A stretch of 64,000 nt of DNA from Candidatus Moraniibacteriota bacterium (GTDB lineage Bacteria > Patescibacteriota > Minisyncoccia > Moranbacterales > UBA1568), in NCBI GenBank assembly GCA_017983435.1, contig JAGOBM010000002.1, forward strand, positions 33,414-97,413. The letters are read 5' to 3'. The first letter of the stretch is position 1. Each line of letters opens with the position of its first letter. Positions 1,493 through 61,144 of this stretch are shown in pieces. The position numbers and the translations under genes are program-made. Under the pieces are notes generated by a model. It saw only the letters and a program-made list of their open reading frames with translations, was not told the DNA's origin and did no database searches.

Positions 1493-3193
1493 ATGAAGCG
1501 TTTTTCAGGAGATATTTCTATCGTGCTCGGGGGTGCGGCGGGACAGGGGATACAGACGGTCGAAGCGATGCTCGTATCGGTGCTGAAGGCCGAAGGATAT
1601 CGGATTTTTGCCTGCAAAGAGTACATGTCACGCATCCGCGGGGGATCCAATTCGACCGAGATCCGCATCGGCCGCGGCAATCCGCTCGCGTATGTCGAGC
1701 GTATCGATTTTCTGCTCGCGCTCGATCAGGGTGTCATCCCGCATTTGAGAGAGCGTATCGGCAAGCAGACGATCATACTCGGGGAGAAGGACAAGGTGCA
1801 GCACGAGGGCGCGCATATCATCGATCTGCCGTTTACCAAGCTTTCAGCTGAACTCGGCAATCCGATTTTTGCTTCGACCATCGCGGTCGGCGCGGTACTC
1901 GGCATGCTCGGCGCGGAGCGGAAGCCATTTGAAGACTATCTGCGGGCGCATTTTGCTCGCAAAGGGGAAGACGTGGTGAAGAAGAACCTCGAGGCGGCTG
2001 CCAAAGGTATGGACTTCGGGAGCCATATTGCCTTTATGGAAGGGTTTGAAGTGAACCTCCAGAAAGATGAGACAGTCCGCGAGGAGCTCTTGCTCGATGG
2101 CAATACCGCTCTCGGTCTCGGAGCGATCGCGGCGGGGTGTGATTTTGCCTCATCGTATCCGATGTCTCCCGGGACCGGTGTACTGACCTATCTGGCGAGC
2201 CAGGCGCAGAAGTTCGGTATCGTCATCGATCAGGCGGAAGATGAGATCGCGGCGATCAATATTGCGATCGGTGCCTGGTATGCCGGTGCACGAGCACTCG
2301 TGACGACATCCGGCGGCGGATTCGCCCTCATGTGCGAAGGAGTGAGTCTCGCGGGCATGATTGAGACGCCCGTCGTGGTCCATATCGGACAGCGTCCAGG
2401 CCCGGCGACGGGACTCCCGACGCGTACCGAGCAGGCCGATCTCAATCTCGTGCTCTATGCCGGGCATGGCGAGTTTCCGCGGGCGATATTCGCTCCGGGT
2501 ACTCCTGCACAGGCGTTTCATGCGATGCAGCAGGCTTTCGAGGCGGCGGATGCGTATCAGATCCCGGTCTTCGTCTTGTCGGATCAGTATATGCTCGATT
2601 CCATATCGACTCTTCCGAAGGAAGATCTGGAATGTCTACCGGTAATCAAACACGTCGTCGAGACCGATGCTGCCTATCGCCGCTATGTCGTGACGGAAGA
2701 CGGAATATCGCCCCGTGGTATCCCGGGTTTCGGCCAGGGGATGGTCGGAGTCGATAGCGATGAACACGATGAGGAGGCCCATATCACCGAAAGCGCTCTG
2801 GTCCGCATCGCGATGCATGAGAAGCGTCTCCGGAAGCTCGATCTGATGAAGGAGTCCGCGCTCATGCCGGAGGAGATCGAAGCGGTAAAGGGTGCCAAGA
2901 CGCTTATCGTCACCTGGGGATCGAATCGGGGTATCCTCGAAGAGGCACTCGGCACAATCAAAGATGAGTCCGTGGCCGGCCTCCATTTCTGCCAGGTCTA
3001 CCCGCTCAATCCGAAAGCGAAGAAACTGTTTTCGAAGAAGAGAATCATTGTGATGGAGAACAACGCAGCGGGACAATTCGCCGATCTCTTGGAGCGCGAT
3101 CTCGATATCGAGGTCAGCGAGCGGATCCTGAAATATGACGGATCGCCGTATTCGGTGGAGGAGACGGTGGAGAGGCTGAAACAGCTATTGTAA
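1493..3193 (+). CDS. korA: 2-oxoacid:ferredoxin oxidoreductase, fused gamma/alpha subunit (KorA/OorA-like)
   Basis: An N-terminal gamma domain (GGAAGQGIQT...RGGSNSTEIRIG) is followed by an alpha domain (YPMSPGTGVL...TTSGGGFALM). The start was chosen at the internal ATG at 1493 because the upstream extension of the ORF is not conserved. Confidence 0.85.
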   Translation: MKRFSGDISIVLGGAAGQGIQTVEAMLVSVLKAEGYRIFACKEYMSRIRGGSNSTEIRIGRGNPLAYVERIDFLLALDQGVIPHLRERIGKQTIILGEKDKVQHEGAHIIDLPFTKLSAELGNPIFASTIAVGAVLGMLGAERKPFEDYLRAHFARKGEDVVKKNLEAAAKGMDFGSHIAFMEGFEVNLQKDETVREELLLDGNTALGLGAIAAGCDFASSYPMSPGTGVLTYLASQAQKFGIVIDQAEDEIAAINIAIGAWYAGARALVTTSGGGFALMCEGVSLAGMIETPVVVHIGQRPGPATGLPTRTEQADLNLVLYAGHGEFPRAIFAPGTPAQAFHAMQQAFEAADAYQIPVFVLSDQYMLDSISTLPKEDLECLPVIKHVVETDAAYRRYVVTEDGISPRGIPGFGQGMVGVDSDEHDEEAHITESALVRIAMHEKRLRKLDLMKESALMPEEIEAVKGAKTLIVTWGSNRGILEEALGTIKDESVAGLHFCQVYPLNPKAKKLFSKKRIIVMENNAAGQFADLLERDLDIEVSERILKYDGSPYSVEETVERLKQLL

Positions 3194-3210
3194 ATTCAAA
3201 ATTCAAAATG

Positions 3211-3630
3211 ACAAGCTCCAAATAAATCCAAATGATTCAAATTCAAAAAACAAAAATATACGATTTGGAGGAACGGACATTAGAGTATGGGAAGAGAATT
3301 ATTCATTTAAGCAGGAGTCTTCCAAAGGATGTAGCTAACGATACTATTAGCGGGCAGCTCATGCGTTCAGGGACTTCATTAGGCGCTAATTATAGAGAAG
3401 CTAATGAAACAGTAACCAAAAAAGATTTTTCTTTTCGGATGCGTATTTGTCGTAAAGAAGCAAAGGAAACGGTGTATTGGCTGCAGTTGGTGGTAGAAGC
3501 AAATCCAGATCTGGACAAGAGGGTTTCTCCGTTACTTCAAGAAACGAGGGAGTTGGTAAAAATATTCGCAGCCATTATTGAAAAATCTAAATAATTTGAT
3601 ATTTGAATTTGTAATTTATTTGGAGCTTGT
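3211..3630. mobile_element. AT-rich cassette bounded by a perfect 17-bp inverted repeat (ACAAGCTCCAAATAAAT at 3211-3227; ATTTATTTGGAGCTTGT at 3614-3630) and carrying a four-helix-bundle gene
   Basis: The inverted repeat was read directly from the sequence, and the arms extend further with imperfect matches. GC falls sharply relative to the flanking korA and korB. Confidence 0.6.
3232..3594 (+). CDS. Four-helix-bundle protein (TIGR02436, the family of 23S rRNA intervening-sequence proteins)
   Basis: YDLEERTLEYGKRIIHLSRSLPKD...SGQLMRSGTSLGANYREANE...KDFSFRMRICRKEAKETVYWLQLV matches the family signature. Confidence 0.8.
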   Translation: MIQIQKTKIYDLEERTLEYGKRIIHLSRSLPKDVANDTISGQLMRSGTSLGANYREANETVTKKDFSFRMRICRKEAKETVYWLQLVVEANPDLDKRVSPLLQETRELVKIFAAIIEKSK

Positions 3631-3656
3631 AATTTTTGATTTTAGATTTAAAACGT

Positions 3657-4599: not shown

Positions 4600-4917
4600 T
4601 TAATCCCAGCCGAGACGGATCTTGGCATCCTCATTCATTTTCTCCGGGGTCCAGGGCGGATCGAAGACGAGATCGATTTTGGCTTCTTCCACACCGTCGA
4701 TTTCCATGAGGCGATCCTCGATGTCTTTCTGTATGACCGGAAACAAAGGGCAGCCGATCGTGGTGAGAGTCATGGTGATGAGCGCGATGCCTTCCTGGGA
4801 TATCGCGATACCATAGACGAGTCCGAGATCCCAGATGGAAACACCGAGCTCAGGATCCATGACCTGTTTGAGCTTCTCTTGGATCGCGATTTTGAGTTGT
4901 GATGGAGTGTGGGGCAT
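4600..4917 (-). CDS. sufT: SUF-associated DUF59/MIP18-family FeS assembly protein (SufT-like)
   Basis: PSQLKIAIQEKLKQVMDPELGVSIWDLGLVYGIAI...TMTLTTIGCPL is the DUF59 fold signature. It is the last gene of the suf operon; the start was taken at the internal Met (MPHTPS). Confidence 0.7.
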   Translation of the reverse strand: MPHTPSQLKIAIQEKLKQVMDPELGVSIWDLGLVYGIAISQEGIALITMTLTTIGCPLFPVIQKDIEDRLMEIDGVEEAKIDLVFDPPWTPEKMNEDAKIRLGWD

Positions 4918-4929
4918 ACAAAGATAGGG

Positions 4930-5038
4930 AGAATATGGAATAGAGTATAGAGAATAAAGGTTTCTGAAACAATAACCCTCCATTGCGGAGGATTATTGTT
5001 TTTCTTTTCTGTATTCCTTATTCTACATTCTCTATTCT
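4930..5038. repeat. GAATA-rich inverted-repeat element (arms 4930-4956 and 5012-5038) flanking a CCTCC-ATTGC-GGAGG hairpin
   Basis: The arms AGAATATGGAATAGAGTATAGAGAATA and TATTCCTTATTCTACATTCTCTATTCT belong to the same family as elements at eight other loci listed in the findings. It is intercistronic between fdx and sufT. Confidence 0.6.
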
Positions 5039-5044
5039 AGAGAA

Positions 5045-5690: not shown

Positions 5691-6944
5691 TTATGCTAAG
5701 AGGGTGAGTGCTTTTTTGGCAGCTTCGATGAATCGATCGATATCTCCTTCCGTCGTGTATATCCCGAAACTGATACGGGCCGTGGACGTGATATCGAGTC
5801 TGCGGTGGAGCGGACTGGCGCAGTGTTCGCCGGCGCGGATACAGATAGACTGTTCACCGAGCAGATGCGCGAGGTCGTGTGGGTGGATGCCCTTGAGAGC
5901 AAAGGCGATAAGTCCGCTCCGTCGCTCAGGCGATGATGGTCCCAGGATGCGGATGGCATCCCCGAAAGTCTCGGTCAGGCGCGTGAGAGCCGAGCGGATG
6001 AGCGATGCTTCATGAGCACGGATGGCTTCCACCCCGATCGTTTCGAGGAAGTCGAGGGCGGCACCCCAGCCGATGACGCCGGAGATATTCGGCGTGCCAG
6101 CTTCAAAGCGGTAGGGAATGTCTTTGTACTTCCTGGGAGCAGAACAAGCCCGCCCGTTTTCTGATGGCGGACAAGCATCCAATACCATACCGCCGCCGAA
6201 AGTCAGGGGGGGCAGAGTCTCGAGGAGTGAGGCTCGGCCATAGAGAATACCGACGCCGGTCGGGCCATACAGTTTGTGCGCCGAGAAGGCGACAAAATCC
6301 GCGTTCCACTCGGCGACATCGATGGGGATATGGAGAGCGGCTTGGGCGGCATCGATCACGGTGAGGGTGTCTCTGTTTTTTGCTCGAACCGCCTGGATGA
6401 TATCCGTCACGGGATTGATCCCGCCGAAGACATTGGAAACAGCGGAGAAAGCGACCAGCACCGTCCGAGCATCCACGAGTGTAGCCATAGCGACTGGTTC
6501 GATGAGACCATCGGCATCAAACGGGACGATACGAAGCTCGATGTCCTTGGCTTCCGCGAGCTCGACCCAGGGGAGAAAGTTGGCATGGTGCTCAGCGTCG
6601 GTGATGACGATATTGTCTCCTGCTCGGAGTCGGGGGGCGATCCAGGTGGCGACCATATTGAGAGCCTGAGTCGTGTTTTGGGTGAAGATGATTTCTCTCG
6701 GGGTGGCTCCGATGAAACGAGCTGTCCGCTCCCGGACTGCTTCGAACGCTTCGGTGGCTTGCTCGGCGATCGGATAGAGGCCGCGGCCGATATTGGCCGA
6801 ATATTCCTCTTCATAGGCCCGTTCGGCCGTGATGACGCAGTCCGGTTTCAGGCTGGTCGCTGCCGAATCGAGGTATGCGAGCTCGGGGTGATGGGAGAAT
6901 ATCGGGAAATATTCCCGGATATCCGCTGGGAGAACACGGTTCAT
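5691..6944 (-). CDS. sufS: Cysteine desulfurase SufS (PLP-dependent class V aminotransferase)
   Basis: SAHKLYGPTGVGILYG contains the PLP-Lys motif, and RAGEHCASPL contains the active-site Cys. It overlaps sufD by ATGA. Confidence 0.9.
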   Translation of the reverse strand: MNRVLPADIREYFPIFSHHPELAYLDSAATSLKPDCVITAERAYEEEYSANIGRGLYPIAEQATEAFEAVRERTARFIGATPREIIFTQNTTQALNMVATWIAPRLRAGDNIVITDAEHHANFLPWVELAEAKDIELRIVPFDADGLIEPVAMATLVDARTVLVAFSAVSNVFGGINPVTDIIQAVRAKNRDTLTVIDAAQAALHIPIDVAEWNADFVAFSAHKLYGPTGVGILYGRASLLETLPPLTFGGGMVLDACPPSENGRACSAPRKYKDIPYRFEAGTPNISGVIGWGAALDFLETIGVEAIRAHEASLIRSALTRLTETFGDAIRILGPSSPERRSGLIAFALKGIHPHDLAHLLGEQSICIRAGEHCASPLHRRLDITSTARISFGIYTTEGDIDRFIEAAKKALTLLA

Positions 6945-10385: not shown

Positions 10386-11378
10386 ATGACTTCATATTCA
10401 GGATTTTGGGGAGAATTGAAAAAACCGTTCTTTGTGATGGCGCCGATGGCGGATGTCACTGATGCGGCTTTTCGGCGCATGTTTGCCAAGTACGGCAAGC
10501 CGGATGTGACGTGGACGGAATTCGTTTCGGCCGACGGACTCTGTCATCCGGAGGGGCGATTGGCGATGCTCGGGGATCTCGGATATACCGAGGCGGAACG
10601 TCCGATCGTCGCGCAGGTGTTTACTGCTCATCCGGACAAGATGCGAGAATCGGCCCGGATCATCCTCGGTCTCGGTTTCGATGGTATCGATATTAATATG
10701 GGGTGTCCGGATAAGAACGTGATGAAGCAGGGCGCCGGCGCCAAACTCATGCAGGATCCGGCTCTGGCTCGGTCTCTCGTCGCTGCGGCCAAGGAGGGAG
10801 TTGAGGGAAAAATCCCCGTCTCAGTGAAAACGAGGATCGGTTTCAATAAGGATGAGCTCGATGTGTGGCTCCCAGAACTGCTATCCGAGCGACCGGCAGC
10901 GATTACGGTGCATGCGAGGACCAAGAAAGAGATGTCGCTGGTTCCGGCCCGCTGGGAGTATGTGGCCCAAGCAGTCGAGCTCGCGCGCGGCACCGGCGTG
11001 CTCATCATCGGCAATGGCGATGTACGGAGTATGGAGGAAGCGCGACAGCGGGTTGCAGAGACGGGCTGTGATGGGGTAATGATCGGACGGGGACTCTTCG
11101 GGAATCCGTGGTTTTTTTCCGAGCAGGAAGTATCTCTTGATGAGCGTCTCCGGGCTCTTATCGAGCATACCGAACTGTATGAATCATTGTTCTCCGGTCA
11201 GAAGAGCTTCGAAATCATGAAGAAACATTACAAGGCCTATGCGCATGGATTCGACGGAGCGCACGGGCTGCGTGCGGCGCTGATGGAATGCCACGATGCG
11301 CCGTCGGTTCGAGAGCGGGTCGAGGATTTTCTCCTGCATCGGGCAGCTGCAGCGATTGACAAGCCGCCGCTCGACTGA
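10386..11378 (+). CDS. tRNA-dihydrouridine synthase (Dus family, FMN TIM barrel)
   Basis: FVMAPMADVTDAAFRRMF...INMGCPDKNVMKQGAGAKLM...VKTRIG match Dus. The start was chosen at the ATG at 10386. Confidence 0.85.
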   Translation: MTSYSGFWGELKKPFFVMAPMADVTDAAFRRMFAKYGKPDVTWTEFVSADGLCHPEGRLAMLGDLGYTEAERPIVAQVFTAHPDKMRESARIILGLGFDGIDINMGCPDKNVMKQGAGAKLMQDPALARSLVAAAKEGVEGKIPVSVKTRIGFNKDELDVWLPELLSERPAAITVHARTKKEMSLVPARWEYVAQAVELARGTGVLIIGNGDVRSMEEARQRVAETGCDGVMIGRGLFGNPWFFSEQEVSLDERLRALIEHTELYESLFSGQKSFEIMKKHYKAYAHGFDGAHGLRAALMECHDAPSVRERVEDFLLHRAAAAIDKPPLD

Positions 11379-11421
11379 TACGATGGCCGGTCTTGTTCTT
11401 TGGAGAAGAGAGGAGGGAAAT

Positions 11422-11886
11422 ATGGCTCGGATACGGACGACGACTTCTAGTCGGACACTCGGGAATATCGATACGCTTTTTCGGGAGACCAAAGTGATTC
11501 TCGTGGTCATACAGAAAAGGCGGTTTTTCATCGCTCATCGTTCGGGAGAATTGGTCCGGCAGCCCGAGTGGCTGGCCCTCCGGCACTTCACGGATGTGCT
11601 CCATGCGAGGAGACTCAATCGGAAGAAGCACGGTCAGGCCTATGCGGACTTCGTGTTCGGCTGTATCGACTGGGCATTGCAGCCGTTTCCGGATTGGAAA
11701 GGCGATATGCATTCTTTCGTACGGCACCTCGAGTACCTGCTGAACCGGAAATCTGATGGTGTCTACCGGTATCGGTCGGATCTCGAGATGTTTTTCATCC
11801 GATTGCGCAACAAGCTGCGCGAACGGCTGGCCAATGCGCGTAGACAGCAGCGGGCTGCGCGCCTGGAGGCGATACGGATCGCATAA
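11422..11886 (+). CDS. Hypothetical Arg-rich protein (154 aa)
   Basis: The ATG at 11422 is preceded by an AGGAGGG RBS. No family was recognised. Confidence 0.45.
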   Translation: MARIRTTTSSRTLGNIDTLFRETKVILVVIQKRRFFIAHRSGELVRQPEWLALRHFTDVLHARRLNRKKHGQAYADFVFGCIDWALQPFPDWKGDMHSFVRHLEYLLNRKSDGVYRYRSDLEMFFIRLRNKLRERLANARRQQRAARLEAIRIA

Positions 11887-14704: not shown

Positions 14705-15469
14705 ATGGAACATTTTTGGCAACGCATCAATCCCGTATTGACCCTGGTATTCCGAGGACACGATATCTGTGCGGACACGCTCGGCCGATGGTATGGGTCT
14801 GTCAAGTGGGGTATCCTGATCGCCGCTCATTTCACGCTGCTTATCTTGTTCGTACCGGAGCTCGCCGTCTTCCGGAAAGGAGCGGGCGAGCTCGCAGCCA
14901 ATCTCCTGATCGCGCTCCTGTTCCTGAGTCCGATCGCGACGATATTCCGGATGCGTCTCCTTTCGCTCGGCATGGGATTGCGGCGGGAAATCGGCATACT
15001 CATGGGCTACCTGGCCGTCGTGCATGGAGTCGGATATATGACCGATCCTCAATTCTTCACGTTGTTCATCGCGGAGCATCTCGGAGCGGGAATCGTATCG
15101 ATGGATACGAGTATCCTGGTCGGGATCATCGGTCTAATCCTGACGCTGCCGCTCCTCGTCACCTCCAACGCTTTCTCGATGCGGCGGCTCGGAGGGAAAA
15201 ATTGGAAAAGACTGCACCGTCTCGTCTATCCGGCCTTCCTTTTTATCGTCTTGCATCGGTTTTTCCAGGTCGGAGGATCCTGGCAGGAGGTCGGACCGTT
15301 CATTGAAGCGGGTGTGCTGATCGGTATTTACACACTTCTCAAATATCTTGCTTGGAAGCCGACGGCTTGGCCGTGGTTGCGCTGGATCGTCGGTCAGATA
15401 GGCGCGCGCTATGCTACGTATCGGCAGGCGAGAGGAGCTCATGCGATCAGTCATTCAGATCTAAAATAA
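14705..15469 (+). CDS. Ferric-reductase-like transmembrane protein (MsrQ/YedZ-like heme-binding membrane subunit)
   Basis: It has six predicted TM helices with His residues in TM helices (VVHGVGY; LHRLVYPAFLFIVLHRF). Confidence 0.55.
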   Translation: MEHFWQRINPVLTLVFRGHDICADTLGRWYGSVKWGILIAAHFTLLILFVPELAVFRKGAGELAANLLIALLFLSPIATIFRMRLLSLGMGLRREIGILMGYLAVVHGVGYMTDPQFFTLFIAEHLGAGIVSMDTSILVGIIGLILTLPLLVTSNAFSMRRLGGKNWKRLHRLVYPAFLFIVLHRFFQVGGSWQEVGPFIEAGVLIGIYTLLKYLAWKPTAWPWLRWIVGQIGARYATYRQARGAHAISHSDLK

Positions 15470-15474
15470 AGGGT

Positions 15475-16698
15475 ATGCATATTTTTTGGAAAGGCAGTCT
15501 CTTGTTTGCTCTGCTGCTGGCCGGTATCGGCGTGACCATCCCATCAGCTGAAGCGGCTGATCGGGTACTCATTGAGGTCTTCGAACGTCAGGATTGCGCG
15601 CACTGTCAGGCTGAACGGGTATTTCTCGATGAGCTCATGAAGAGCCAGCAGGACGTCGAGGTGAAGAGACTGGATATCGCGGATGCTGCTTCCAAAGCAC
15701 TCTTCACGCAGTTTACTGATGCTCAGGGACTTTCCAAAGCGACGCCGCTCACGGTGATCGGCACGGAGGCGATACAGGGGTTCGATACGGAGGAAACGAC
15801 TGGCGCACTCATCATTCAGGCGGTGGAGGCCGGACAGGGAGAAGAGCGGCTCGGTATCGCTGTGCTCCTCGAAAGGAATATCAAGACCGGTGTCCGAGAG
15901 GAAGGCGCGATCTGCGATGCGGAGACCGGTGTCTGCAAGAAACCGGCACCGGAATACCCGGTCCGTGTGCCGTTTATCGGGACTGTGAATGCCTATGCTT
16001 TCTCGCTCCCGGTACTCGCGAGTATCCTCGGTTTCATCGATGGATTCAATCCCTGCGCTATGTGGGTGCTCGTCACCTTCCTCCTCGTCTTGATGCAGAT
16101 AGAGTCGCGTGAGCGGATGCTCTCGGTGGCCGGACTCTTCATCGTCGCCGAGGCGGTCATGTACTATCTCATCCTCAATATCTGGTTTACGACGTGGGAT
16201 TTCGTCGGTCTCGATCAGATCGTGACGCCGATCATCGGTCTCTTGGCGATCGGCGGCGGCGGGTTCTTCCTCTATGAGTGGAAGACAGCCGACGGCGCCT
16301 GCAAAATCATCGATGCGGAGAAACGGGTCTCCATCATCGCGTCCGTCAAGAAGCTCGCTCATGAGCCGCTGACGTGGGTATCAGCCGCCGGTATCGTCGC
16401 GCTCGCGTTCTCAGTCAATGTCATCGAATTCGCCTGCTCCATCGGTATCCCGCAGGCCTTCACCAAGATCCTCGAGCTGAACCAGCTGCACTTTTTGCAG
16501 GAGCAGGGGTTGATGGCGCTCTACATCTTCTTTTACATGCTGGATGATTTCCTTGTCTTCGGCCTCGCGCTCTGGGGCGCGCAGCATCTCCATCTGACAC
16601 AGAAGTATTCCCGCTGGTCGACGTTCGTCGGCGGCATACTCATGCTTATCCTCGGGCTCATCCTCATCTTCTCGCCGGAAGCGTTGCGTTTCGTATAA
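15475..16698 (+). CDS. Signal peptide, then a thioredoxin/glutaredoxin-like domain (CAHC), then a CcdA/DsbD-family thiol:disulfide transmembrane electron-transfer domain
   Basis: A signal peptide MHIFWKGSLLFALLLAGIGVTIPSAEA is followed by ERQDCAHCQ. The TM domain has FNPCAMW in TM1 and FACSIGIP in a later TM, matching CcdA Cys motifs. Confidence 0.6.
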   Translation: MHIFWKGSLLFALLLAGIGVTIPSAEAADRVLIEVFERQDCAHCQAERVFLDELMKSQQDVEVKRLDIADAASKALFTQFTDAQGLSKATPLTVIGTEAIQGFDTEETTGALIIQAVEAGQGEERLGIAVLLERNIKTGVREEGAICDAETGVCKKPAPEYPVRVPFIGTVNAYAFSLPVLASILGFIDGFNPCAMWVLVTFLLVLMQIESRERMLSVAGLFIVAEAVMYYLILNIWFTTWDFVGLDQIVTPIIGLLAIGGGGFFLYEWKTADGACKIIDAEKRVSIIASVKKLAHEPLTWVSAAGIVALAFSVNVIEFACSIGIPQAFTKILELNQLHFLQEQGLMALYIFFYMLDDFLVFGLALWGAQHLHLTQKYSRWSTFVGGILMLILGLILIFSPEALRFV

Positions 16699-16842
16699 AT
16701 ATGAAGACGGATGTGTTGTGATGTTTGGTCATTGCGAGCGAAGCGTGGCAATCCAACGAAGACATCTTTATCGAGATTGCCACGTCGTGGACTTCTCGCA
16801 ATGACAGAGAAAAAAAATGGCTGATGTCTATAGCATGAGCGA

Positions 16843-16876
16843 ACAAAAATCCCCAGCGAAAGGCCGGGGATTTTGC
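16843..16876. terminator. Bidirectional rho-independent terminator (3-prime of rplT on the minus strand; also downstream of the Trx-CcdA gene)
   Basis: CAAAAATCCCCAGCGAAAGGCCGGGGATTTTGC has a GC stem flanked by A and T tracts. Confidence 0.6.
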
Positions 16877-17541: not shown

Positions 17542-17637
17542 AACTGTATTGCGAACTTACAACTTACAACTGATGACTAGTATGAATCAGAGTTGCGTTG
17601 TTGTATGTTGTTGGTCGTTAGTTATTAGTTGACTGGT

Positions 17638-18286: not shown

Positions 18287-18676
18287 TAGTGGAGTTGATG
18301 GGAATTGCACCCATGTCCAGTCACGTTTTTCCAAAATATTCTACAAGCGTAGTCTGCTTTAGGTCCCTTCCTCTCTATGAAACAGACGAAAGAGAGCGGA
18401 AGACTGGTCTTCTGCAAAAGGCGATCGGAGGAGAAAGACGAGAAGAAAATCTCCGGACCTTCCCGAAGTATGACACCGGCGGTTCTCTATCGGGAGTCGA
18501 GGAGCCGATGGTCCGCGCGAATTAGGCGCGGGCGAAAGCGAAAGACGGAGCGAACGCCGAAGCGAACGTGGCCTTGGCCTTTGGGATGAAGTTTGCACTT
18601 ATCGGTTGATGGAAGTTTTTACGATCGTACCATCATGATCGGCTTGCCTATTTTGAAAGTACGCCCTGTCGAGTCT
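18287..18676 (-). ncRNA. ssrA: tmRNA (transfer-messenger RNA, SsrA)
   Basis: The minus-strand 5-prime end GGGGUUGUUUAGACUCGACAGGG and 3-prime end GGACAUGGGUGCAAUUCCCAUCAACUCCA(CUA) closely parallel E. coli GGGGCUGAUUCUGGAUUCGACGGG...GGACGCGGGUUCAACUCCCGCCAGCUCCACCA. The acceptor stem GGGGUUG/CAACUCC keeps the G3:U wobble. A resume-codon context UAAGU-GCA-AAC and an Ala-rich tag frame ending in UAA lie on plus 18522-18596. The gene is directly downstream of smpB. Confidence 0.8.
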
Positions 18677-18772
18677 AAACAACCCCATACCATCAAGGAT
18701 GATGGAAATTCCAAATTCCAAAGCCCAAATTCCCAGCGGAATTGTAGAGTTTGGATCTTAGAATCTGAAGAA

Positions 18773-20542: not shown

Positions 20543-20884
20543 ATGACTCTGGAGCAGAATCATCCGAATCTGAAAAAACTCTTGGTATTCTTTCTGGTAG
20601 TGTTCGTAATCCTGGTCGGATTGGCCGGGTTGAAAGTGTATCTCGATGTATCGAAGTCGCCAGAGACGCCGGTGATGCAGGATGGCGGAGCACCTACGGG
20701 TCGTCTGACTGAGGCGGATATAGAGCAGCAGCTTGAAGCTTTGAATGTCGGAGATGATCCGAATAAGCACCCAACCGCGGCGGAAATGGAGAAACAGCTT
20801 GAAACCTTGAATGCTGGAGATGATACCGCCAAGCGCCCGACGGAAGCAGAAATCAGACAACAGCTTGAAGCTTTGAATCAGTAG
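20543..20884 (+). CDS. Small N-terminally membrane-anchored protein with 22-aa tandem repeats (EADIEQQLEALNVGDDPNKHPT)
   Basis: It has one TM helix followed by two and a half copies of a 22-aa acidic helical repeat. Confidence 0.6.
   Translation: MTLEQNHPNLKKLLVFFLVVFVILVGLAGLKVYLDVSKSPETPVMQDGGAPTGRLTEADIEQQLEALNVGDDPNKHPTAAEMEKQLETLNAGDDTAKRPTEAEIRQQLEALNQ
20711..20881 (+). repeat. Tandem 66-bp coding repeat, about 2.6 copies
   Basis: Units at 20711-20776, 20777-20842 and 20843-20881 have near-identical cores, CAGCTTGAAGCTTTGAATG and CAGCTTGAAACCTTGAATG. Confidence 0.7.
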
Positions 20885-20921: not shown

Positions 20922-21485
20922 ATGCATCAGCTCTTGCGAGGTAGTCTCTACTGGGGAAAAGTCATTTCACTCGGTGTCATTCTCGGCGTCGGGATACAGT
21001 TCGCAGAAGCCTGGACCAACCCGACCGCTTCGGCCCCGGGTGGCAATATCGCTGGACCCTTGAATACCGGAGTCATCAATCAAGTGAAGAACGCTTCTTT
21101 GGGATTGGTAGGCAATCTGGCTGCCAATATGCTCCAGATCAACGGTGTAGCGACGGAAGGAGCAGCGTGCAGCTCTACCGGACTGGTAGCTCGGGATACC
21201 GGCGGAGTGATTCTGTCGTGTCAGTCGGGGGCGTGGAGGAAGGGGATGGGGGGGGGTGGACTTGGTACATCGCGGATGATTACGGCACCTACGGGGACAG
21301 CTACCACCAGTGTAACGTGTGCGTCTGATGAAGTTGTGACGAGCTGTGTATTGCGAAATCCAACGGCGGTGGGAGGAGTTTACTCCTCCTCTATTTCGGG
21401 AAAAACGTGTAGGTCAACTACTACCGAGGCAGATTTTAGTGATCGCCTGGCGTCAGGTCCGCTCATGGCTACTTGTGTCAAGTAA
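20922..21485 (+). CDS. Secreted hypothetical protein (signal peptide, Gly/Thr/Ser-rich, 7 Cys)
   Basis: It has an N-terminal hydrophobic segment with AEA followed by W. No family was recognised. Confidence 0.55.
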   Translation: MHQLLRGSLYWGKVISLGVILGVGIQFAEAWTNPTASAPGGNIAGPLNTGVINQVKNASLGLVGNLAANMLQINGVATEGAACSSTGLVARDTGGVILSCQSGAWRKGMGGGGLGTSRMITAPTGTATTSVTCASDEVVTSCVLRNPTAVGGVYSSSISGKTCRSTTTEADFSDRLASGPLMATCVK

Positions 21486-21682: not shown

Positions 21683-23359
21683 TTGGAAGAGACTTCCCTA
21701 TTCGAAGTTTCACTGCCGGGTATGAAAACAACTCTAGCGCAAGCGATACAGGGAGCGATCGAGGGATTGATCCGGACGGGTCAGCTGCCTCTATTCGATC
21801 TGCCTTGCATCCAGGTGGAGCGTCCGAAGGATGAACAGTTCGGCGAATATACGTCGAATATCGCTTTGATCGCAGCCAAAATAGTCGGCAAGAATCCGAG
21901 AGAATTGGCGGAGCTGATCAAAGAACAATTAACAATTAACAATCAACAAGAAACATTCTTCGAAAAAATCGAAGTCGCTGGTCCGGGGCATCTCAATCTC
22001 TATCTGGCGCAGTCGGTACTCGGCGGTGTCGTGGAAACTATCGCAGCGCGACAGGATCAGTACGGGGCATCAGATCAGGGAGCAGGCCAGTCCGTGAACA
22101 ACGAATTCGTCTCGGCCAATCCGACCGGCCCGCTGCATCTCGGCAATGGCCGCGGGGGATTCTTTGGCGATACGCTCTCGCACATCCTGCGCAAGGCGGG
22201 ATACGCCGTAACGAATGAATACTATGTGAACGATGCCGGCGAGCAAGTGCTGAAGCTCGGGCATAGCGTCCTCAAGGACGAGGAGGCGGTATATGGAGGA
22301 GAATATATTGAAACGCTCCATGAGCGTTTCAAACAACAAACAACAAACAACAAACAACAAGATGGGGAAGGTGTAGTGAGGGAAACAGGCGAGTGGGCGG
22401 CGGAATATATTCTCACACATTTCATCCAGCCGACGCTCAAGGATCAGATGCGGATTACGTTCGATGTCTTCACTTCGGAAAAGCAAGAAATAATCGAGCG
22501 TGGGTATGTCGAGAAAGCCCTGGAGATTTTCAAGGAGAAGCAGCTTTCGTTCGAGACGGACGGCGCACTCTGGCTCAAGACGACCGCTTTCGGCGATGAC
22601 AAAGATCGAGTGCTCGTGAAGGGCGATGGGACGAAGACATACTTCGCGTCCGATTGCGGCTATATCCTCTCCAAGATGGAGCGCGGCTTTACACGGCTTA
22701 TCCTCACGCTCGGAGCGGATCATCACGGCTATCGGGCCCGGATCGAAGCAGCAGCACAGGCGCTCGGATTTGTCGGCCGTTTCGATTTTGTCTTCGTCCA
22801 GCTGGTCCGCCTCATGAAAGACGGCCAGGAAGTGCGGATGAGCAAGCGGGCGGGCAATGTCGTCTCGATCGACGAGCTGATCGAGCGGGTCGGACCGGAT
22901 GTCGCACGCTTCTTCTTTCTCGTGTACAGCCCCGATACGCATATGAACTTTGATCTCGGACTGGCAGAAGAGCGGTCACAGAAGAACCCGGTCTACTATG
23001 TGCAGTACGCGCATGCTCGGCTGGCCAGCGTGCTAGCCAAAGCGGCGGAGGCCGGACTCGATCCGGATCGCGGCGATGTCACTCTGCTCCAGGACCCGAA
23101 GGAGCGCCTGCTCCTCGCTGAGCTCCTCTCATTCCCGGATTTGATCTTGGATACGGCCGAGGATTATGCCGTCCATCGGCTGCCTCAGTATGCTATCCGT
23201 CTGGCTGACCGGCTGCACTCTTTCTATGATGCCTGCCGGGTCATCGATACCGAACAGCCAGCGATGTCTGAGGCTCGCCTGAGGCTCGTGAAAAGTGCTA
23301 AAATAGTCTTGAGTGAGACACTTCGTCTCATAGGTGTTACTGCTCCGGAAAAGATGTAG
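21683..23359 (+). CDS. argS: Arginyl-tRNA synthetase
   Basis: SANPTGPLHLGNGRGG is the HIGH-region variant, and MSKRAGNVV the KMSK variant. It contains two in-frame simple-sequence stretches (INNQQ; QQTTNNKQQ). Confidence 0.9.
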   Translation: MEETSLFEVSLPGMKTTLAQAIQGAIEGLIRTGQLPLFDLPCIQVERPKDEQFGEYTSNIALIAAKIVGKNPRELAELIKEQLTINNQQETFFEKIEVAGPGHLNLYLAQSVLGGVVETIAARQDQYGASDQGAGQSVNNEFVSANPTGPLHLGNGRGGFFGDTLSHILRKAGYAVTNEYYVNDAGEQVLKLGHSVLKDEEAVYGGEYIETLHERFKQQTTNNKQQDGEGVVRETGEWAAEYILTHFIQPTLKDQMRITFDVFTSEKQEIIERGYVEKALEIFKEKQLSFETDGALWLKTTAFGDDKDRVLVKGDGTKTYFASDCGYILSKMERGFTRLILTLGADHHGYRARIEAAAQALGFVGRFDFVFVQLVRLMKDGQEVRMSKRAGNVVSIDELIERVGPDVARFFFLVYSPDTHMNFDLGLAEERSQKNPVYYVQYAHARLASVLAKAAEAGLDPDRGDVTLLQDPKERLLLAELLSFPDLILDTAEDYAVHRLPQYAIRLADRLHSFYDACRVIDTEQPAMSEARLRLVKSAKIVLSETLRLIGVTAPEKM

Positions 23360-29006: not shown

Positions 29007-29037
29007 GATATTCAATATTCCATATTCTCTATTCTTC
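29007..29037. repeat. GAATA-family repeat element (single arm, reverse orientation)
   Basis: GATATTCAATATTCCATATTCTCTATTCTTC lies between the ileS stop and the recO start. Confidence 0.55.
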
Positions 29038-30957: not shown

Positions 30958-33997
<3,040 letters not shown>

Positions 33998-38791: not shown

Positions 38792-38804
38792 TGCTGATTT
38801 TTCC

Positions 38805-38834
38805 CTATTCAATATTCTAAATTCCATATTCTAC
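38805..38834. repeat. GAATA-family repeat element (reverse orientation)
   Basis: CTATTCAATATTCTAAATTCCATATTCTAC lies immediately upstream of the M16 peptidase start. Confidence 0.55.
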
Positions 38835-40260: not shown

Positions 40261-41286
40261 ATGACTATCGATGAACGGGTAGAGATCGGTACGAAATTGC
40301 TTGTCCGTGCGGCGCTCTTGGTCGGCGGCGTGTATGCGCTCTATCTCTTGCGCGATGTCGTACTTCTGGTGCTCCTGGCCGTGCTGACGGCGGCGGCACT
40401 CACGCCAGCGGTCAACAAGCTGCGGGCCAGAGGACTTTCCCGTACGGCGGCGGTGATCATCATCTACGCTGTGCTGTTCCTCGGGGGAGTCGCGCTGCTC
40501 ATGGTGTTCATTCCGGTGTTCTTCTCGGAAATCAAGGAGTTCCTCGGTAATTGGCCGAAGTACTCCGAACGTCTCGGCGTGTTCTTCTCCGGCATCGAAG
40601 CCTATATGCAGGCGCTCGGATTCGTCTTCGATAAGCAGGCATTCTTCACGGATATCGAGGGATCGATCGGCAGCTGGTTCGGCGGGCTGTTCTCGACGAC
40701 GATCAATCTCTTCCAGGGGTTCATCCACGCGATCGGCTTCTTCTTCCTCGCGCTCTACCTGTCGCTCGAGGAGAAAGGCATCGAGAAATTCTTCCTCATG
40801 CTGACGCCGGATCAGTATCATGACCACGCGCTCTCCATCGCGTCGCGCATGCAGGGCAAGGTGAGCCAGTGGCTGTTCGGCCAGGCGATACTCATGCTCA
40901 TCGCGTTTACGATCTACTATATCGGTCTCTCGATTATCGGTGTACCGTACGCGCTGGCCATCGCCTTCTTCGGCGGACTGATGGAAATCCTGCCGTACAT
41001 CGGACCGGTGCTTGCGGCCGTGCCGGCTATCCTGGTTGGCCTGCTCTATTCCCCGGGCCTCGGATTTGCCGCTCTCATCTTCTATCTCATCGCCCATCAG
41101 GTGGAAGCGCATATCGTCGCTCCGCAGGTCATGAAGCGATCGGCTGATCTCAATCCGGTCGCGCTCATCATCGCTATCCTCATCGGTATAGAGCTTGGCG
41201 GACCGCTCGGCGTCATCCTGGCTGTACCGGTGACGATGATGCTCTCGGTGTTCGTCGAAGATATTATGATCAAGCGAAACGCTTAG
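40261..41286 (+). CDS. AI-2E family transporter (UPF0118/PerM-like permease)
   Basis: It has eight TM helices, and AHQVEAHIVAPQVMKRSADLNPVALIIAILIGIELGGPLGVILAVPV is the family C-terminal block. Confidence 0.8.
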   Translation: MTIDERVEIGTKLLVRAALLVGGVYALYLLRDVVLLVLLAVLTAAALTPAVNKLRARGLSRTAAVIIIYAVLFLGGVALLMVFIPVFFSEIKEFLGNWPKYSERLGVFFSGIEAYMQALGFVFDKQAFFTDIEGSIGSWFGGLFSTTINLFQGFIHAIGFFFLALYLSLEEKGIEKFFLMLTPDQYHDHALSIASRMQGKVSQWLFGQAILMLIAFTIYYIGLSIIGVPYALAIAFFGGLMEILPYIGPVLAAVPAILVGLLYSPGLGFAALIFYLIAHQVEAHIVAPQVMKRSADLNPVALIIAILIGIELGGPLGVILAVPVTMMLSVFVEDIMIKRNA

Positions 41287-41320
41287 AATAGAATATCGAA
41301 TATTGAATAGAGAATATGGA
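41285..41320 (+). repeat. GAATA-family repeat element overlapping the rsmI start codon
   Basis: AGAATAGAATATCGAATATTGAATAGAGAATATGGA. The ATG of rsmI lies inside the motif. Confidence 0.55.
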
Positions 41321-41996
41321 ACAAGAAAGAATTGGAACCCTATATATCGTCGCGACCCCTATCGGCAATCTGGGGGATATCACGCTGCGCGCGCTCGAGA
41401 CGCTCAAAGCGGTCGACGCGGTGCTCTCCGAAGATACCCGGGTAACCGGGAAGCTCCTGATGCATTATGAAATCAAGAAATCACTCATCTCGTGTCATGA
41501 ACACACGGATGATACGAAACTCGGGCAGATCGTCGCTCGCCTGACCCGCGGAGAGTCGCTCGCTTTCGTCTCCGATGCTGGGACGCCGGGACTCTCCGAT
41601 CCGGGCAACAAGCTGGTCTCGCTCGCTCTCGCCGCTGGAATCCCGGTCGTGCCGATTCCGGGTGTGTCGGCGCTCGCCGCCATGGTGTCGGTCGCGGGCA
41701 TCGATATGCGCGAGTTCATGTTTCTCGGCTTCCCGCCGCACAAGAAGGGACGTGAGACGTTTTTCAAAAAAGTCGCTGCTACCGAGATACCGGTTGTCTA
41801 CTACGAATCGGTACACCGCGTCGTGAAGAATCTCGAGCTGCTCGAGACGCTTGCTCCCGAGTCCCGAGTCATCATCGGCCGCGAGCTGACCAAGATGTTC
41901 GAAGAAGTTCGCCGCGGCAGCGTGTCCGATATCCTCGCGCACTATCGCGAGCACGAGAGCACAGTCAAAGGGGAATTCGTCGTGATCGTGTATTAA
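41316..41996 (+). CDS. rsmI: 16S rRNA (cytidine1402-2'-O)-methyltransferase
   Basis: GTLYIVATPIGNLGDITLRALETLKAVDAVLSEDTR is the tetrapyrrole-methylase fold of RsmI. Confidence 0.85.
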   Translation: MEQERIGTLYIVATPIGNLGDITLRALETLKAVDAVLSEDTRVTGKLLMHYEIKKSLISCHEHTDDTKLGQIVARLTRGESLAFVSDAGTPGLSDPGNKLVSLALAAGIPVVPIPGVSALAAMVSVAGIDMREFMFLGFPPHKKGRETFFKKVAATEIPVVYYESVHRVVKNLELLETLAPESRVIIGRELTKMFEEVRRGSVSDILAHYREHESTVKGEFVVIVY

Positions 41997-44196: not shown

Positions 44197-45219
44197 ATGT
44201 TCGATGTCCATGCCCATCTGCACGACGAGGCTTTTGTCGGGGATCGTGATGCTACGGTTGATCGGGCGCGGGCCGTCGGGCTGGAGGATATCGTGACGAT
44301 TGGTACGGATCCGGAGGAGAATCGTCGGGCGGTCGCCTGTGCCGAAGCGTATCCTGATGTGTGGGCCAGCGTCGGTCTGCATCCGCATTTCTTTGACGAA
44401 GAATATAGAATATGGAATGAAGAATATGGAGGGAAAATACCAGTACGAAACGAGACAGAAAAAGAGAGTCCTATTCAATATTCAACATTCGATATTCTCT
44501 TCGGAGACAAAGGGCGTATTCGAGAATATGTCGCGCAATTGAGAAAAGTCGCTGAAAGTTCGAGTAAGGTCATAGCTATCGGGGAGTGCGGTCTGGATTA
44601 TTACAGGCGCCAGTCAGCAGATAGCAATCAACAGGAAACGATTACAGAGGAGCAGAAGGCGTTCCAGCGGGAAGGATTTCTGGCGCAGATAGCTATCGCG
44701 GAAGATCTCGGTTTGCCGCTCATCGTCCATACCCGTCCCTCTCTGGGTTCGATGCCCGCCCGCAACGATCCGCAAGCGAAGCGTAGCGATTCGGGCGGAG
44801 ATGCCTATGAAGATGTGTTTCTTATACTAAAATCTAAAATCACTGCCCGTCCGGCAGGCGGGAAAAATCTAAAATCAGTAGTGCTTCACTGTTATATGGG
44901 TGACCTCTCAGTGACGGAAAAATTCCTCAGTTTGCCGGGAGTGCACTTCTCTTTTACCGGCAATATCACCTACAAGGTCAAGGAGGGATCGGATCGCGAT
45001 GAGACGCTCCGGATGATTCCGATCGAGCGGATGCTCTCGGAGACCGATTGCCCGTACCTCGCGCCGGTGCCGTATCGGGGGCAGCGCAATGAGCCGGCCT
45101 ATGTGGCGGAAGTCGTGCGCCGTATCGCTCTCATGCAGCAGATGACGTATACTGAGGCTGAGGAGCAGATCGGGATCAATACCCGACGCGTGTTTCCCCG
45201 TATGTTTGAAACCGTATAA
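44197..45219 (+). CDS. tatD: TatD-family metal-dependent hydrolase (DNase)
   Basis: MFDVHAHL...AIGECGLDYY...HCY...SETDCPY are the TatD motifs. It carries a roughly 35-aa in-frame insertion encoded by a GAATA-family inverted-repeat element. Confidence 0.85.
   Translation: MFDVHAHLHDEAFVGDRDATVDRARAVGLEDIVTIGTDPEENRRAVACAEAYPDVWASVGLHPHFFDEEYRIWNEEYGGKIPVRNETEKESPIQYSTFDILFGDKGRIREYVAQLRKVAESSSKVIAIGECGLDYYRRQSADSNQQETITEEQKAFQREGFLAQIAIAEDLGLPLIVHTRPSLGSMPARNDPQAKRSDSGGDAYEDVFLILKSKITARPAGGKNLKSVVLHCYMGDLSVTEKFLSLPGVHFSFTGNITYKVKEGSDRDETLRMIPIERMLSETDCPYLAPVPYRGQRNEPAYVAEVVRRIALMQQMTYTEAEEQIGINTRRVFPRMFETV
44398..44502. repeat. GAATA-family inverted-repeat element inserted in-frame within tatD
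   Basis: The arms are GAAGAATATAGAATATGGAATGAAGAATATGGAG (44398-44431) and CCTATTCAATATTCAACATTCGATATTCTCTTC (44470-44502). The reading frame is preserved. Confidence 0.65.
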
Positions 45220-49465: not shown

Positions 49466-49541
49466 AAGAATATCGAATATGGAATGTAGAATGTAGACAA
49501 AATACATTTCCCTATATTCTCTATTCGAAATTCTCTATTCT
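49466..49541. repeat. GAATA-family inverted-repeat element between atpA and atpG
   Basis: The arms are GAAGAATATCGAATATGGAATGTAGAATGTAG (49466-49496) and CTATATTCTCTATTCGAAATTCTCTATTCT (49512-49541). Confidence 0.6.
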
Positions 49542-50437: not shown

Positions 50438-50616
50438 CGCGACGATTGTAGATTTAAGATTTTCGATTTTAGAATAAATACTCAGGTGTCATTCCGAGCG
50501 TAGTCGAGGAATCTAATGAACAGTAGATTTCTCGAGAGGCTCAGAATCAGTTGTTTGGAAAAAAGAAAAGCCCCGGCGCAGTTGCGACGAGGCTGATAGG
50601 TTGGCTAAGTTGCCGA

Positions 50617-50950: not shown

Positions 50951-51478
50951 ATGCCGGAAAAGGCAGCGAAAAATCTGGTAGCGATTCCGAATGAGCGCAT
51001 CGAAAAGCGGATTTTTTGGCTGCGCGGGGAAAAGGTGATGCTTGATGCCGATTTGGCAGAGTTGTATGATGTATTGACCGGAAACCTGAACAAAGCGGTC
51101 AAGCGTAATATCGATCGGTTCCCATCCGATTTTATGTTTCAGTTGAACAAGGCGGAATTTGATGGTTTGATGTTCCAAAATGGAATATCAAAAGGGCGAG
51201 GCGGGAAAAGAAAGCTGCCGTACGCTTTTACCGAGCAGGGTGTGGCGATGCTCTCGAGCGTATTGAAGAGCCAGCGGGCAGTAGCAGTGAATATCCAAAT
51301 TGTCCGGACATTCGTAGAGCTGCGGAAGATGCTCGCAACGCATGAAGGACTGAGGAAGAAGATCGAGGCGATGGAACGGAAGTATGACAAACAGTTCAAG
51401 GCGGTATTCGATGTGTTGCGGCAACTCTTGAAAGAAGAAACGGAGCCGAAACAGAAGATCGGATTTGCTATAAAACAG

Positions 51479-51481
<3 letters not shown>
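50951..51481 (+). CDS. ORF6N-domain (KilA-N-related) DNA-binding protein
   Basis: LRGEKVMLDADLAELYDV...NKAVKRNIDRFPSDFMFQLNKAEF...GKRKLPYAFTEQGVAMLSSVLKSQRAVAVNIQIVRTFVELRK is the characteristic ORF6N signature. Its stop codon lies inside a GAATA-family repeat. Confidence 0.75.
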
Positions 51482-52942
<1,461 letters not shown>

Positions 52943-60240: not shown

Positions 60241-61014
60241 ATGTATACTAGCCCTATGGAAAAACGATGGAACATTATCGGGGGATTGGTGTTGGCGGCT
60301 TGTCTCGTAGGCGCTGCTTGGGTATGGAACACGCGACCTGTCGGGACGGTAGTATTGGAAAATGGCAGCGCGGAAGGCATCCAGGAGATGGCTATCGGAA
60401 CTGAAGTGGCGGAGACGACCCCTGATGAGCCAGCGGTCGTGCCATCGCCAGAGATCGAGAAGCCGACCCCGAAAGCACCGGAGGAAAAGACAGGAACGGA
60501 AAAGCCGGAAGAGAAAGCTGCTCCGTCACCGACGACTGCTCCTTCGAAATTCAAGGTGATTGAGCGGCGAGTGAATTTTGGGTTTGGTGCGGCGGATCGA
60601 AAAGCGAAAGACATCGATACGATCGTGTTGCATTCCTCATACAACAATCAGGGAGGAGACCGGTACTCGGTCGACACAGTCATCGGTATCTGGAAGAGTT
60701 ACGACGTCGCGCCGCACTATCTGGTCGATCGGAAGGGGAATGCCTACCGGCTGGTCGATGAGAGCGATATCGCGTATCATGCGGGAGTATCGGAAATGAA
60801 GGACGGTCGGACGAATGTGAACGCTTTTTCGATCGGGATCGAGATACTGAATGCGGAGGATGACGACTATACGGACGCGGAATACGAGGCTATCCGGGAT
60901 CTGATCGCGGAGCTCAAGCAGACATATCCGATCAAATATGTCGTCGGGCACGATGATATTGCTCCCGGCAGAAAGACCGATCCGTGGAATTTTGATTGGA
61001 AACACATTCGTTGA
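60241..61014 (+). CDS. Membrane-anchored N-acetylmuramoyl-L-alanine amidase (Amidase_2/PGRP domain)
   Basis: An N-terminal TM segment and a Pro/Glu/Lys linker are followed by IDTIVLHSS...AYHAG...GHDDIAPGRKTDPWNFDW, the amidase_2 Zn-ligand pattern. Confidence 0.85.
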   Translation: MYTSPMEKRWNIIGGLVLAACLVGAAWVWNTRPVGTVVLENGSAEGIQEMAIGTEVAETTPDEPAVVPSPEIEKPTPKAPEEKTGTEKPEEKAAPSPTTAPSKFKVIERRVNFGFGAADRKAKDIDTIVLHSSYNNQGGDRYSVDTVIGIWKSYDVAPHYLVDRKGNAYRLVDESDIAYHAGVSEMKDGRTNVNAFSIGIEILNAEDDDYTDAEYEAIRDLIAELKQTYPIKYVVGHDDIAPGRKTDPWNFDWKHIR

Positions 61015-61144
61015 TTTTCGATTTTCGATGTTTGATTTTAGAATCCTCTTTCCAAAAGGAGTCAAAAAAATATTATTCTATCCTTTCTTGTGGCTCTGAG
61101 ATTCCAAAATCCAGAATCTAATATCCAGAATCATCTCAAAGAGT

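Follow-up and report, generated by a model that had tools for sequence, protein, structure and literature searches.

Gene-less GAATA repeats with heptad arms in a Candidatus Moranbacteria genome and their possible kinship with intervening-sequence-protein cassettes

The present study analyzes a family of short AT-rich repeats, referred to here by their core word GAATA, in a 64-kb window (the whole stretch of DNA that was analyzed, 64,000 nucleotides) of a metagenome-assembled genome (MAG) of Candidatus Moranbacteria, a lineage of the Patescibacteria or candidate phyla radiation (CPR). [quoted passage not shown] The more interesting result is broader than the GAATA family: in metagenome loci IVP cassettes are generally associated with inverted arms of period 7, and these arms travel with the gene.

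Each arm consists of roughly four 7-bp units in tandem (about 28 bp), and under this reading two inverted arms would give a long AU-rich stem once transcribed. Small cassettes with a gene for the S23p four-helix bundle, i.e. the kind of IVS that bears an open reading frame (ORF), are bracketed by this architecture as well. Elements of both sorts would settle in the only permissive places of a compact genome, the stop-to-start gaps of a few dozen bases, and those that are in frame and free of stop codons could settle in surface loops of proteins, as in TatD and Tgt. GAATA pairs would then derive from, or depend on, an IVP-type cassette and would presumably be transcribed and processed in the manner of IVS stems, with single arrays representing half-elements.

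The family comprises 12 arrays at eight loci (Table 1). The earlier note had counted nine loci, but its own list holds eight, and outside these nowhere in the window are there even two exact units. A period-7 model recovered arrays at every coordinate that had been given, among them the paired copy in tatD and the half-copy in tgt, and both the rsmI ATG and the ORF6N stop TAG lie inside copies as had been described. What had been read as loose (A/G)GAATA words is better described as tandem 7-bp units with the consensus G-A-A-T-A-(T/G)-(A/G), derived from 51 units. Positions 6–7 vary between neighboring units of one array, and GTAG is present in only some units. Arrays are 26–33 nt long with 21–35% GC, which bears out the claim that they lie far below host GC, although the value for the window is 54.3% rather than 57%. 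The 19-mer GAATATGGAATAGAGAATA, with up to 3 mismatches allowed, had 14 matches in the window compared with 0.04 expected, and two exact units, GAATANNGAATA, had 16 compared with 0.08 expected, every one within the listed loci; a period-7 scan found 10–12 arrays of 4–5 units in the window and 0 in 30 shuffles. Half of the loci are inverted pairs, in keeping with the pairing previously noted, with arms of 23–32 nt that are 75–83% complementary and separated by 5–45 nt. Region 4930-5038, for example, consists in order of GAGAATATGGAATAGAGTATAGAGAATAAAGG, a GC-rich hairpin and CTGTATTCCTTATTCTACATTCTCTATTCTAG. Predicted folds of paired copies range from -25 to -37 kcal/mol (z -3.4 to -8.1), that of 4925-5042 being -37 kcal/mol with z -6.3. 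The remaining four loci are single arrays with no partner, and as RNA these are unstructured (0 kcal/mol, no self-complementarity). No known RNA family overlapped any GAATA copy in an Rfam scan of the window.

One gene in the window, at 3232-3594, encodes an IVP, and the closest solved structure to its product is 2RLD, a five-chain entry. The cassette (34% GC) exactly occupies the gap from the porA stop to the porB start, has 386 nt between its arms, and the outer parts of those arms are heptads, AAATTCA and GATTTTn. The gene has more than 1,800 homologues, and the best 120 listed are 66–93% identical and occur in several CPR lineages and many contexts. Among 71 analysable metagenome loci, an inverted repeat with a score of at least 14 lay across the gene at 44, compared with none of 202 shifted controls, and a flanking period-7 array was present at 43 compared with 9 of the 202 controls. 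Cassettes were co-oriented with the upstream gene in 47 of 51 cases, with a median gap of 74 nt, and the gene ahead of the cassette was of 40 different kinds among 47 loci. In 255 of 257 pairwise comparisons homology was limited to the gene plus about 20–60 nt upstream and 50–75 nt downstream; because homology across contexts spans the gene and its flanks and then stops, the arms move with the IVP gene.

Both halves of the proposed class can be found with GAATA words. In a gammaproteobacterial MAG (L071; L-numbers are labels of comparison loci or contigs) an IVP gene lies between 28-nt, 96%-complementary arms of GAATA heptads that are 387 nt apart, in the layout stop-[arm-gene-arm]-start, and the arrangement in a member of the Pirellulales (L106) is similar, with GAATA heptads around the IVP gene. 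Gene-less heptad pairs occur also at other CPR loci, and gene-less inverted pairs of GAATA type were found in Mesorhizobium (L110, at 4899-4994 and 6186-6281), at 872-956 of L034, in L320, in L268/L297 and three times in L294, the hosts of this set being Mesorhizobium, other Pseudomonadota MAGs and viral contigs, and the words including GAATAGC and GAATAGG. These pairs outside the lineage also fill stop-to-start gaps, which in L034 is the gap separating atpD from atpC. Between the arms, a conserved core is common to the L294 copies, and the two L110 copies have part of their sequence there in common. In all, heptad-armed elements were seen in CPR, Alpha- and Gammaproteobacteria, Planctomycetota, Aminicenantes, Acidobacteriota, Clostridia and viral contigs.

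Several observations weigh against placing the GAATA loci in this class. An adjacent IVP gene was present at only 2 of 120 unrelated GAATA-array loci in genomes (L071 and L106) and at none of 120 viral GAATA-array loci. Within the Moranbacteria lineage no GAATA-armed IVP gene was found, the window cassette using AAATTCA/GATTTTn instead, and among 80 CPR IVP loci a GAATA-type array occurred once, at a distance of about 1.8 kb from the gene (L192). The 12 IVP loci examined all lie outside rRNA genes, and the classical IVS context is not applicable here. Four of the eight window loci are the single arrays, with neither partner nor RNA structure. Neither a target-site duplication nor a defined insertion chemistry was found at the copies, and a single master copy is not evident because the loops of the window copies are mutually unrelated.

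Comparison with known IVS nevertheless has much to recommend it. In rRNA genes, IVS are selfish stem-loops with a terminal stem of about 28 bp, cut by RNase III, that occur with or without an S23p ORF and are distributed sporadically at recurrent sites; the S23p protein is a pentameric toroid of four-helix bundles of unknown function, and although IVS and S23p/IVP have been known for about 30 years no function or mobility mechanism has been established (PMC4990558). IVP ORFs have been noted within rRNA insertions of CPR bacteria (10.1101/2024.02.27.582315). The elements described here resemble IVS, whose ORF-bearing form is found in Leptospira, Coxiella, Brucella and CPR, in their complementary termini of about 28 bp and extended stem-loop, in having lower GC than the host, in their sporadic presence among relatives and recurring insertion sites, in existing with or without an ORF for a four-helix bundle of about 120 residues, and in sitting in presumably transcribed, functionally continuous units. 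Predicted stems of IVS type are present in the paired GAATA copies (arms of about 28 nt), and the inverted repeat of the IVP cassette in the window measures 40 nt. The differences are that GAATA elements lie in mRNA spacers and coding sequence as opposed to rRNA helices, that the arms are tandem heptads, and that the GAATA copies have no ORF. We found no account in the literature of IVP arms with heptad structure, of mRNA spacers housing IVP cassettes, or of gene-less families resembling GAATA.

Relatives with the same gene order differ in what they carry at these junctions. At the atpA/atpG junction the window and L217 carry a GAATA pair, L127 and L215 carry an inverted pair of AAACACA type (partly deleted in L216), and L218 has an empty 39-nt spacer. 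Downstream of the atpG stop there is a GATTnnn array and no GAATA in the window, L217 has four GAATA units and an inverted GATTCTA arm, and L127, L215 and L216 have a GTATTnn/GATACnn pair, while in L218 a GAATA pair fills the entire atpG/atpD gap. The glyS/M16 copy is absent from the L127 spacer, which is of the same length, and in L133 an nATACnn array lies upstream of the same M16 gene. The permease/rsmI spacer of L127 is 10 nt long and has no array; indeed L127, the AtpG of which is 98% identical to that of the window, has no GAATA copies. No GAATA array occurred in 48.8 kb of sequence from four relatives; five other relatives have such arrays. Recurrent sites (atpA/atpG, post-atpG, the TatD loop and the M16 leader) are therefore filled, empty or occupied by another word, depending on the relative, and the GAATA copies appear to be inserted, dispensable DNA.

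The proposal of a MITE- or REP-like family can be taken up here, and it held in part: the copies are dispersed, apparently inserted inverted-repeat DNA missing from syntenic junctions of relatives, but the details of a classical MITE or REP are lacking. A classical MITE, REP or REPIN (a paired form of REP) whose mobility is supplied in trans by a transposase, or by a REP-associated tyrosine transposase (RAYT), from elsewhere in the genome could account for inverted pairs and singletons in extragenic space, for presence and absence among relatives, and for arms more conserved than the loop, as expected if a protein recognizes the arms; in addition, the three GAATA-armed L294 copies share their core as a true MITE would, and the two Mesorhizobium copies share part of the spacer. 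However, no direct repeat was found at the edges of any copy, and filled and empty sites that could be compared (tatD with L133 and L216, post-atpG with L217, atpA/atpG with L218) showed no target-site duplication, although in the comparison with L218 the flanks do not align and exact insertion boundaries are not placeable. The loops of the window copies lack a shared core and are unrelated in sequence and length (5–45 nt), and in the 64 kb of genome inspected none of the 50 ORFs scanned had a transposase or RAYT domain. GAATA elements are like MITEs in being small and multicopy, in having terminal inverted repeats (at four loci) and in having a plausible gene-carrying relative with ends of the same type; they differ in the absence of target-site duplications and of a conserved interior or length, and the candidate parent encodes IVP and no recognisable transposase. 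With REP, REPIN and bacterial interspersed mosaic elements they have in common short extragenic repeats after stops in transcribed spacers, singletons as well as hairpin-forming inverted doublets, lineage-specific sequence and maintained arm sequence. The REP unit itself, however, is a GC-rich imperfect palindrome with a conserved 5′ GTAG, unlike the AT-rich tandem heptads of the GAATA arm, and two GAATA copies are in frame within genes. Taken together, mobilization of this classical type is a rather unlikely explanation.

The two copies in coding sequence offer a closer view of how arms evolve. The TatD pair encodes EEYRIWNEEY...IQYSTFDIL in a segment of about 36 residues that lies after the third strand of solved structures, is found in lineages down to 49–56% protein identity and is missing from many relatives; in one relative (L218/P0018) only the right half is present. 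The Tgt array lies within a 16-residue insert missing from every solved Tgt structure. Both copies are lineage-specific in-frame insertions in surface regions. Within the TatD arms, identical residues had identical codons at 13 of 15 positions in a 56%-identical pair of proteins, compared with 71 of 152 in the rest of the gene, and at 11 of 13 in a 71%-identical pair compared with 100 of 191 elsewhere, while the spacer between the arms differs in both sequence and length between lineages. Similarly, the window and L217 have the same left arm in their orthologous atpA/atpG copies, and divergence between the two is greatest in the loop. Contigs with identical AtpG and TatD represent the same strain with identical copies, and are uninformative on variability because they are 99.9–100% identical. 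These comparisons argue for sequence-specific maintenance of the arms, possibly via a factor that reads the arm or via conversion between copies. In-frame insertion has a parallel in the Rickettsia palindromic element (RPE) and the enterobacterial repeats RU and ERIC, which are palindromic elements of about 100 bp that likewise insert in frame into conserved protein genes, where they add 16–40 residues at permissive positions; only some orthologues retain them (PMC2759123). There is no sequence relationship, and RPE copies have a full-length consensus whereas GAATA copies have only the heptad arms in common.

A test independent of any word found 16 period-7 arrays in the window, compared with 0–3 for each of the other periods in the range 4–12; shuffled sequence gave about 0. 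Period 7 accounts for about half of all tandem repeats in the window. GAATA is one word-class within this wider excess, which includes the heptads AAATTCA, AAATTCC, GATTTTn, TCAAAAA, AACAATT and CAAACAA. Arrays of these sister words lie mostly at gene boundaries, with some in frame in argS and tatD, and they have motifs in common with the arm of the IVP cassette. The dominance of period 7 could also reflect heptanucleotide simple-sequence repeats that arose in situ by replication slippage and were tolerated in spacers and loops with no transposition. This would agree with the perfect repeats in several arrays of other words, such as CAAACAA ×4.4 in the argS ORF (22330-22360, 100% identical) and AACTTAC at 17554 (a second argS repeat, AACAATT ×3.7 at 21924-21955, is near-perfect), and with the long pure GAATAnn arrays of cyanobacteria and Bacteroidota. 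Heptamers are the commonest long class of simple-sequence repeat in many bacteria, and in Beggiatoaceae TAACTGA heptamer arrays, for which no function has been established, lie beside and just upstream of start codons (PMC4679880). But independent slippage events would leave unexplained why one word recurs in 12 arrays, facing both ways and forming complementary inverted pairs, and the units differ at positions 6–7 and so are not fresh duplications. Arms have four units in the orthologous copies of the window, L217, L130, L131 and L132, and this constancy across lineages in which about half of the synonymous sites have changed argues against slippage-driven variation; arms also move together with IVP genes between contexts. 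We therefore regard slippage as unlikely. The TAACTGA arrays of marine Beggiatoaceae and the similar short tandemly repeated sequences (STRR) of cyanobacteria are like the GAATA arrays in having 2–6 copies of a 7-nt word placed a few nucleotides ahead of starts that lack a Shine-Dalgarno sequence, occasional copies in ORFs and a patchy distribution across phyla, but they are near-perfect and in one orientation (1 indirect repeat in 170 sets) (PMC4679880), in contrast to the degenerate positions 6–7, both orientations and half share of inverted pairs seen for GAATA. A four-unit GAATA pattern proved not to be host-specific; among the matches listed in a scan of species genomes, most were long simple heptamer arrays in cyanobacteria and Bacteroidota.

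The six intergenic loci all lie between co-directional genes, at the junctions ferredoxin/sufT-like, ileS/recO, glyS/M16 peptidase, AI-2E permease/rsmI, atpA/atpG and ORF6N/atpD. Arrays begin at or a few bases from the upstream stop, and they finish 6–13 nt short of the following start codon or overlap it. Neighboring genes are of the ordinary housekeeping kind and have no common function. One explanation for this placement could be that the copies are host-beneficial cis-elements, i.e. binding arrays or hairpins acting through RNase III or transcript stability to tune neighboring cistrons such as those of the atp operon, with a word that co-evolves with its factor. That the same recurrent sites carry different heptad words by lineage would suit such a role, as would the nucleotide-level constraint on the arms and the position in transcribed intercistronic gaps 6–13 nt from starts. 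In addition, the omega repressor of pSM19035 is known to bind tandem 7-bp operators, both direct and inverted. Set against this, some of the junctions are empty or minimal in relatives (39 nt at atpA/atpG in L218, 10 nt at permease/rsmI in L127), the flanking genes have no function in common, and the copies within coding sequence are hard to square with regulation. Moreover, repeated hits at the same junction are to be expected for selfish DNA because the few spacers of a compact genome are the only permissive targets. A regulatory role is accordingly quite improbable in our estimation.

The earlier note had also raised the possibility that proximity to start codons reflects a shared promoter or translation-initiation region, namely the AT-rich one typical of the lineage. 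Six of the eight loci do end 6–13 nt upstream of a start or overlap one, and single arrays are unstructured as RNA, as a good leader would be. However, a promoter scan found no sigma-70-like hexamer pair inside any copy, whereas canonical promoters with up to 12/12 matches were found elsewhere in the window (e.g. TTGACA-17-TATAAT at 42280-42252), and promoter and terminator scans together found nothing within the copies except the nested hairpin at 4977-4991. Arrays point in either direction with respect to the gene downstream, most loci are inside operons directly after a stop codon, two of the eight are in-frame copies in tatD and tgt, paired copies form strong predicted hairpins, and orthologous genes of relatives lack copies. 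A Shine-Dalgarno sequence is missing from almost all genes of the window, those preceded by an array and the rest alike; the motif is almost absent at -20 to -4 and most starts have T at -1, a pattern that suggests Shine-Dalgarno-independent initiation in this CPR lineage. On this evidence the promoter reading is effectively excluded. The idea that arrays replace the Shine-Dalgarno sequence was likewise rejected, since almost no gene in the window has one. Integron attC sites, DNA-uptake sequences, CsrA- or PUF-type RNA motifs and centromere or iteron arrays were dropped as candidates, there being no supporting feature.

Returning to the interpretation of GAATA loci as gene-less relatives of IVP cassettes, a more far-reaching version may be put forward tentatively. 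Heptad-armed hairpin elements might be a widespread selfish class in which the four to five heptad units of each arm act as a binding array for a pentameric Avd-like IVP/S23p, with IVP being the mobility or maintenance factor of IVS and GAATA elements being its non-autonomous passengers. The IVP family resembles Avd, the accessory protein of diversity-generating retroelements (DGRs) (PMC10053308). We consider this version possible but doubtful. If it were true, the elements would colonize operon spacers, and in-frame read-through would add peptide segments to essential enzymes. What the analysis adds is that IVP cassettes outside rRNA are mobile units the ends of which are inverted arrays of 7-bp units, that gene-less families of the same architecture saturate the small intergenic spaces of a CPR genome, and that such elements can apparently be translated as part of housekeeping proteins, so that in CPR bacteria they would be a source of lineage-specific protein insertions. 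Contig breaks in metagenome assemblies of CPR are also likely to be caused by them: contigs often end at or next to elements, L124 ends at window position 51544, within a GAATA pair, and the contigs with IVP homologues are mostly only 1–2 kb long.

Table 1. Positions of GAATA arrays, the IVP cassette and selected sister-word arrays in the window.
Feature	Position	Strand	Context and remarks
GAATA array, 4 units, left arm of pair	4931-4956	+	between ferredoxin-like stop (5045, minus strand) and SufT-like start (4917, minus strand)
GC-rich 15-bp hairpin, 93% complementary, nested between the 4931/5005 arms	4967-5001	.	same layout in three L294 copies (viral contig)
GAATA array, 5 units, right arm of 4931 pair	5005-5037	-	from period-7 scan
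Single GAATA array, 4 perfect cores, in 56-nt ileS/recO spacer	29009-29034	-	ends ~10 nt upstream of recO ATG; unstructured RNA
Single GAATA array, 4 units, in frame in tgt	33744-33769	+	within 16-aa insert (~33743-33790)
Single GAATA array, 5 units, in 47-nt glyS/M16-peptidase spacer	38799-38831	-	ends 7 nt upstream of ATG
Single GAATA array, 5 units	41291-41323	+	starts at AI-2E permease stop (TAG 41284-41286); includes rsmI ATG (41316)
Left arm, 4 units, of in-frame tatD pair	44401-44426	+	encodes EEYRIWNEEY; nucleotides conserved in four lineages
Right arm, 4 units, of tatD pair	44472-44497	-	encodes IQYSTFDIL; fold z -3.4; sole arm in L218/P0018
Left arm of atpA/atpG spacer pair	49468-49493	+	fold z -4.8; identical in orthologous copy of L217
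Right arm of atpA/atpG pair	49515-49540	-	ends 6 nt upstream of atpG ATG (49547)
Left arm of ORF6N/atpD pair	51481-51506	+	ORF6N stop TAG (51479-51481) overlaps first unit; fold -31 kcal/mol, z -8.1
Right arm of ORF6N/atpD pair	51518-51545	-	ends ~11 nt upstream of atpD ATG (51557)
IVP cassette (PF05635 gene 3232-3594)	3188-3653	+	inverted repeats 3188-3227 / 3614-3653, 40 nt, 85% complementary
Sister-word array GATTnnn, 4 units	50444-50473	+	directly after atpG stop; has GATTTTAGA in common with right arm of IVP cassette
Gene-less sister-word inverted pair, GATTTTC ×4 ... AGAATCC ×5	61013-61132	.	right after amidase stop; weak predicted pairing, fold z -1.6

The surroundings of atpG contain further insertions. 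An ORF6N-domain gene at 50951-51481 separates atpG and atpD, which are normally adjacent; in L217 the same gene (11073-11603) occupies another point of that gap, and it is missing from L127, L215, L216 and L218. Because a heptad array follows it in both carrier genomes, the ORF6N gene may be a second kind of small mobile cassette. The sister-word array after atpG is followed in the window by a hairpin, GTCATTCCGAGCGTAGTCGAGGAATC, at 50487-50514, and L217 has the same stem with a longer, different loop at about 10975-11005; this hairpin seems to resemble a REP-like hairpin common in many environmental genomes. L217 also has, at 15465-16869 between atpC and rpsF, a DGR-like insertion with a weak bAvd match and an RVT_1 reverse transcriptase, and there is none in the window.

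Within tatD there are two other in-frame insertions. One, at 44757-44800, is GC-rich and hairpin-like, encodes PARNDPQAKRSDSGG and is common only to an 86%-identical relative. The other, at 44827-44876, is a 21-nt GC palindrome encoding TARPAGG and is flanked by direct ATCTAAAATC repeats that are GATTTTA heptads on the opposite strand. The only structured RNA gene in the window is that of tmRNA (18287-18686, minus strand; 110.8 bits with Rfam), and an AAATTCC ×4 array at 18706-18733 lies about 20 nt upstream of its 5′ end, with smpB just beyond. Finally, a 66-bp tandem repeat at 20729-20878 (2.3 copies, 77% matches) adjoins a pilin- or shufflon-like ORF at 20922-21485.

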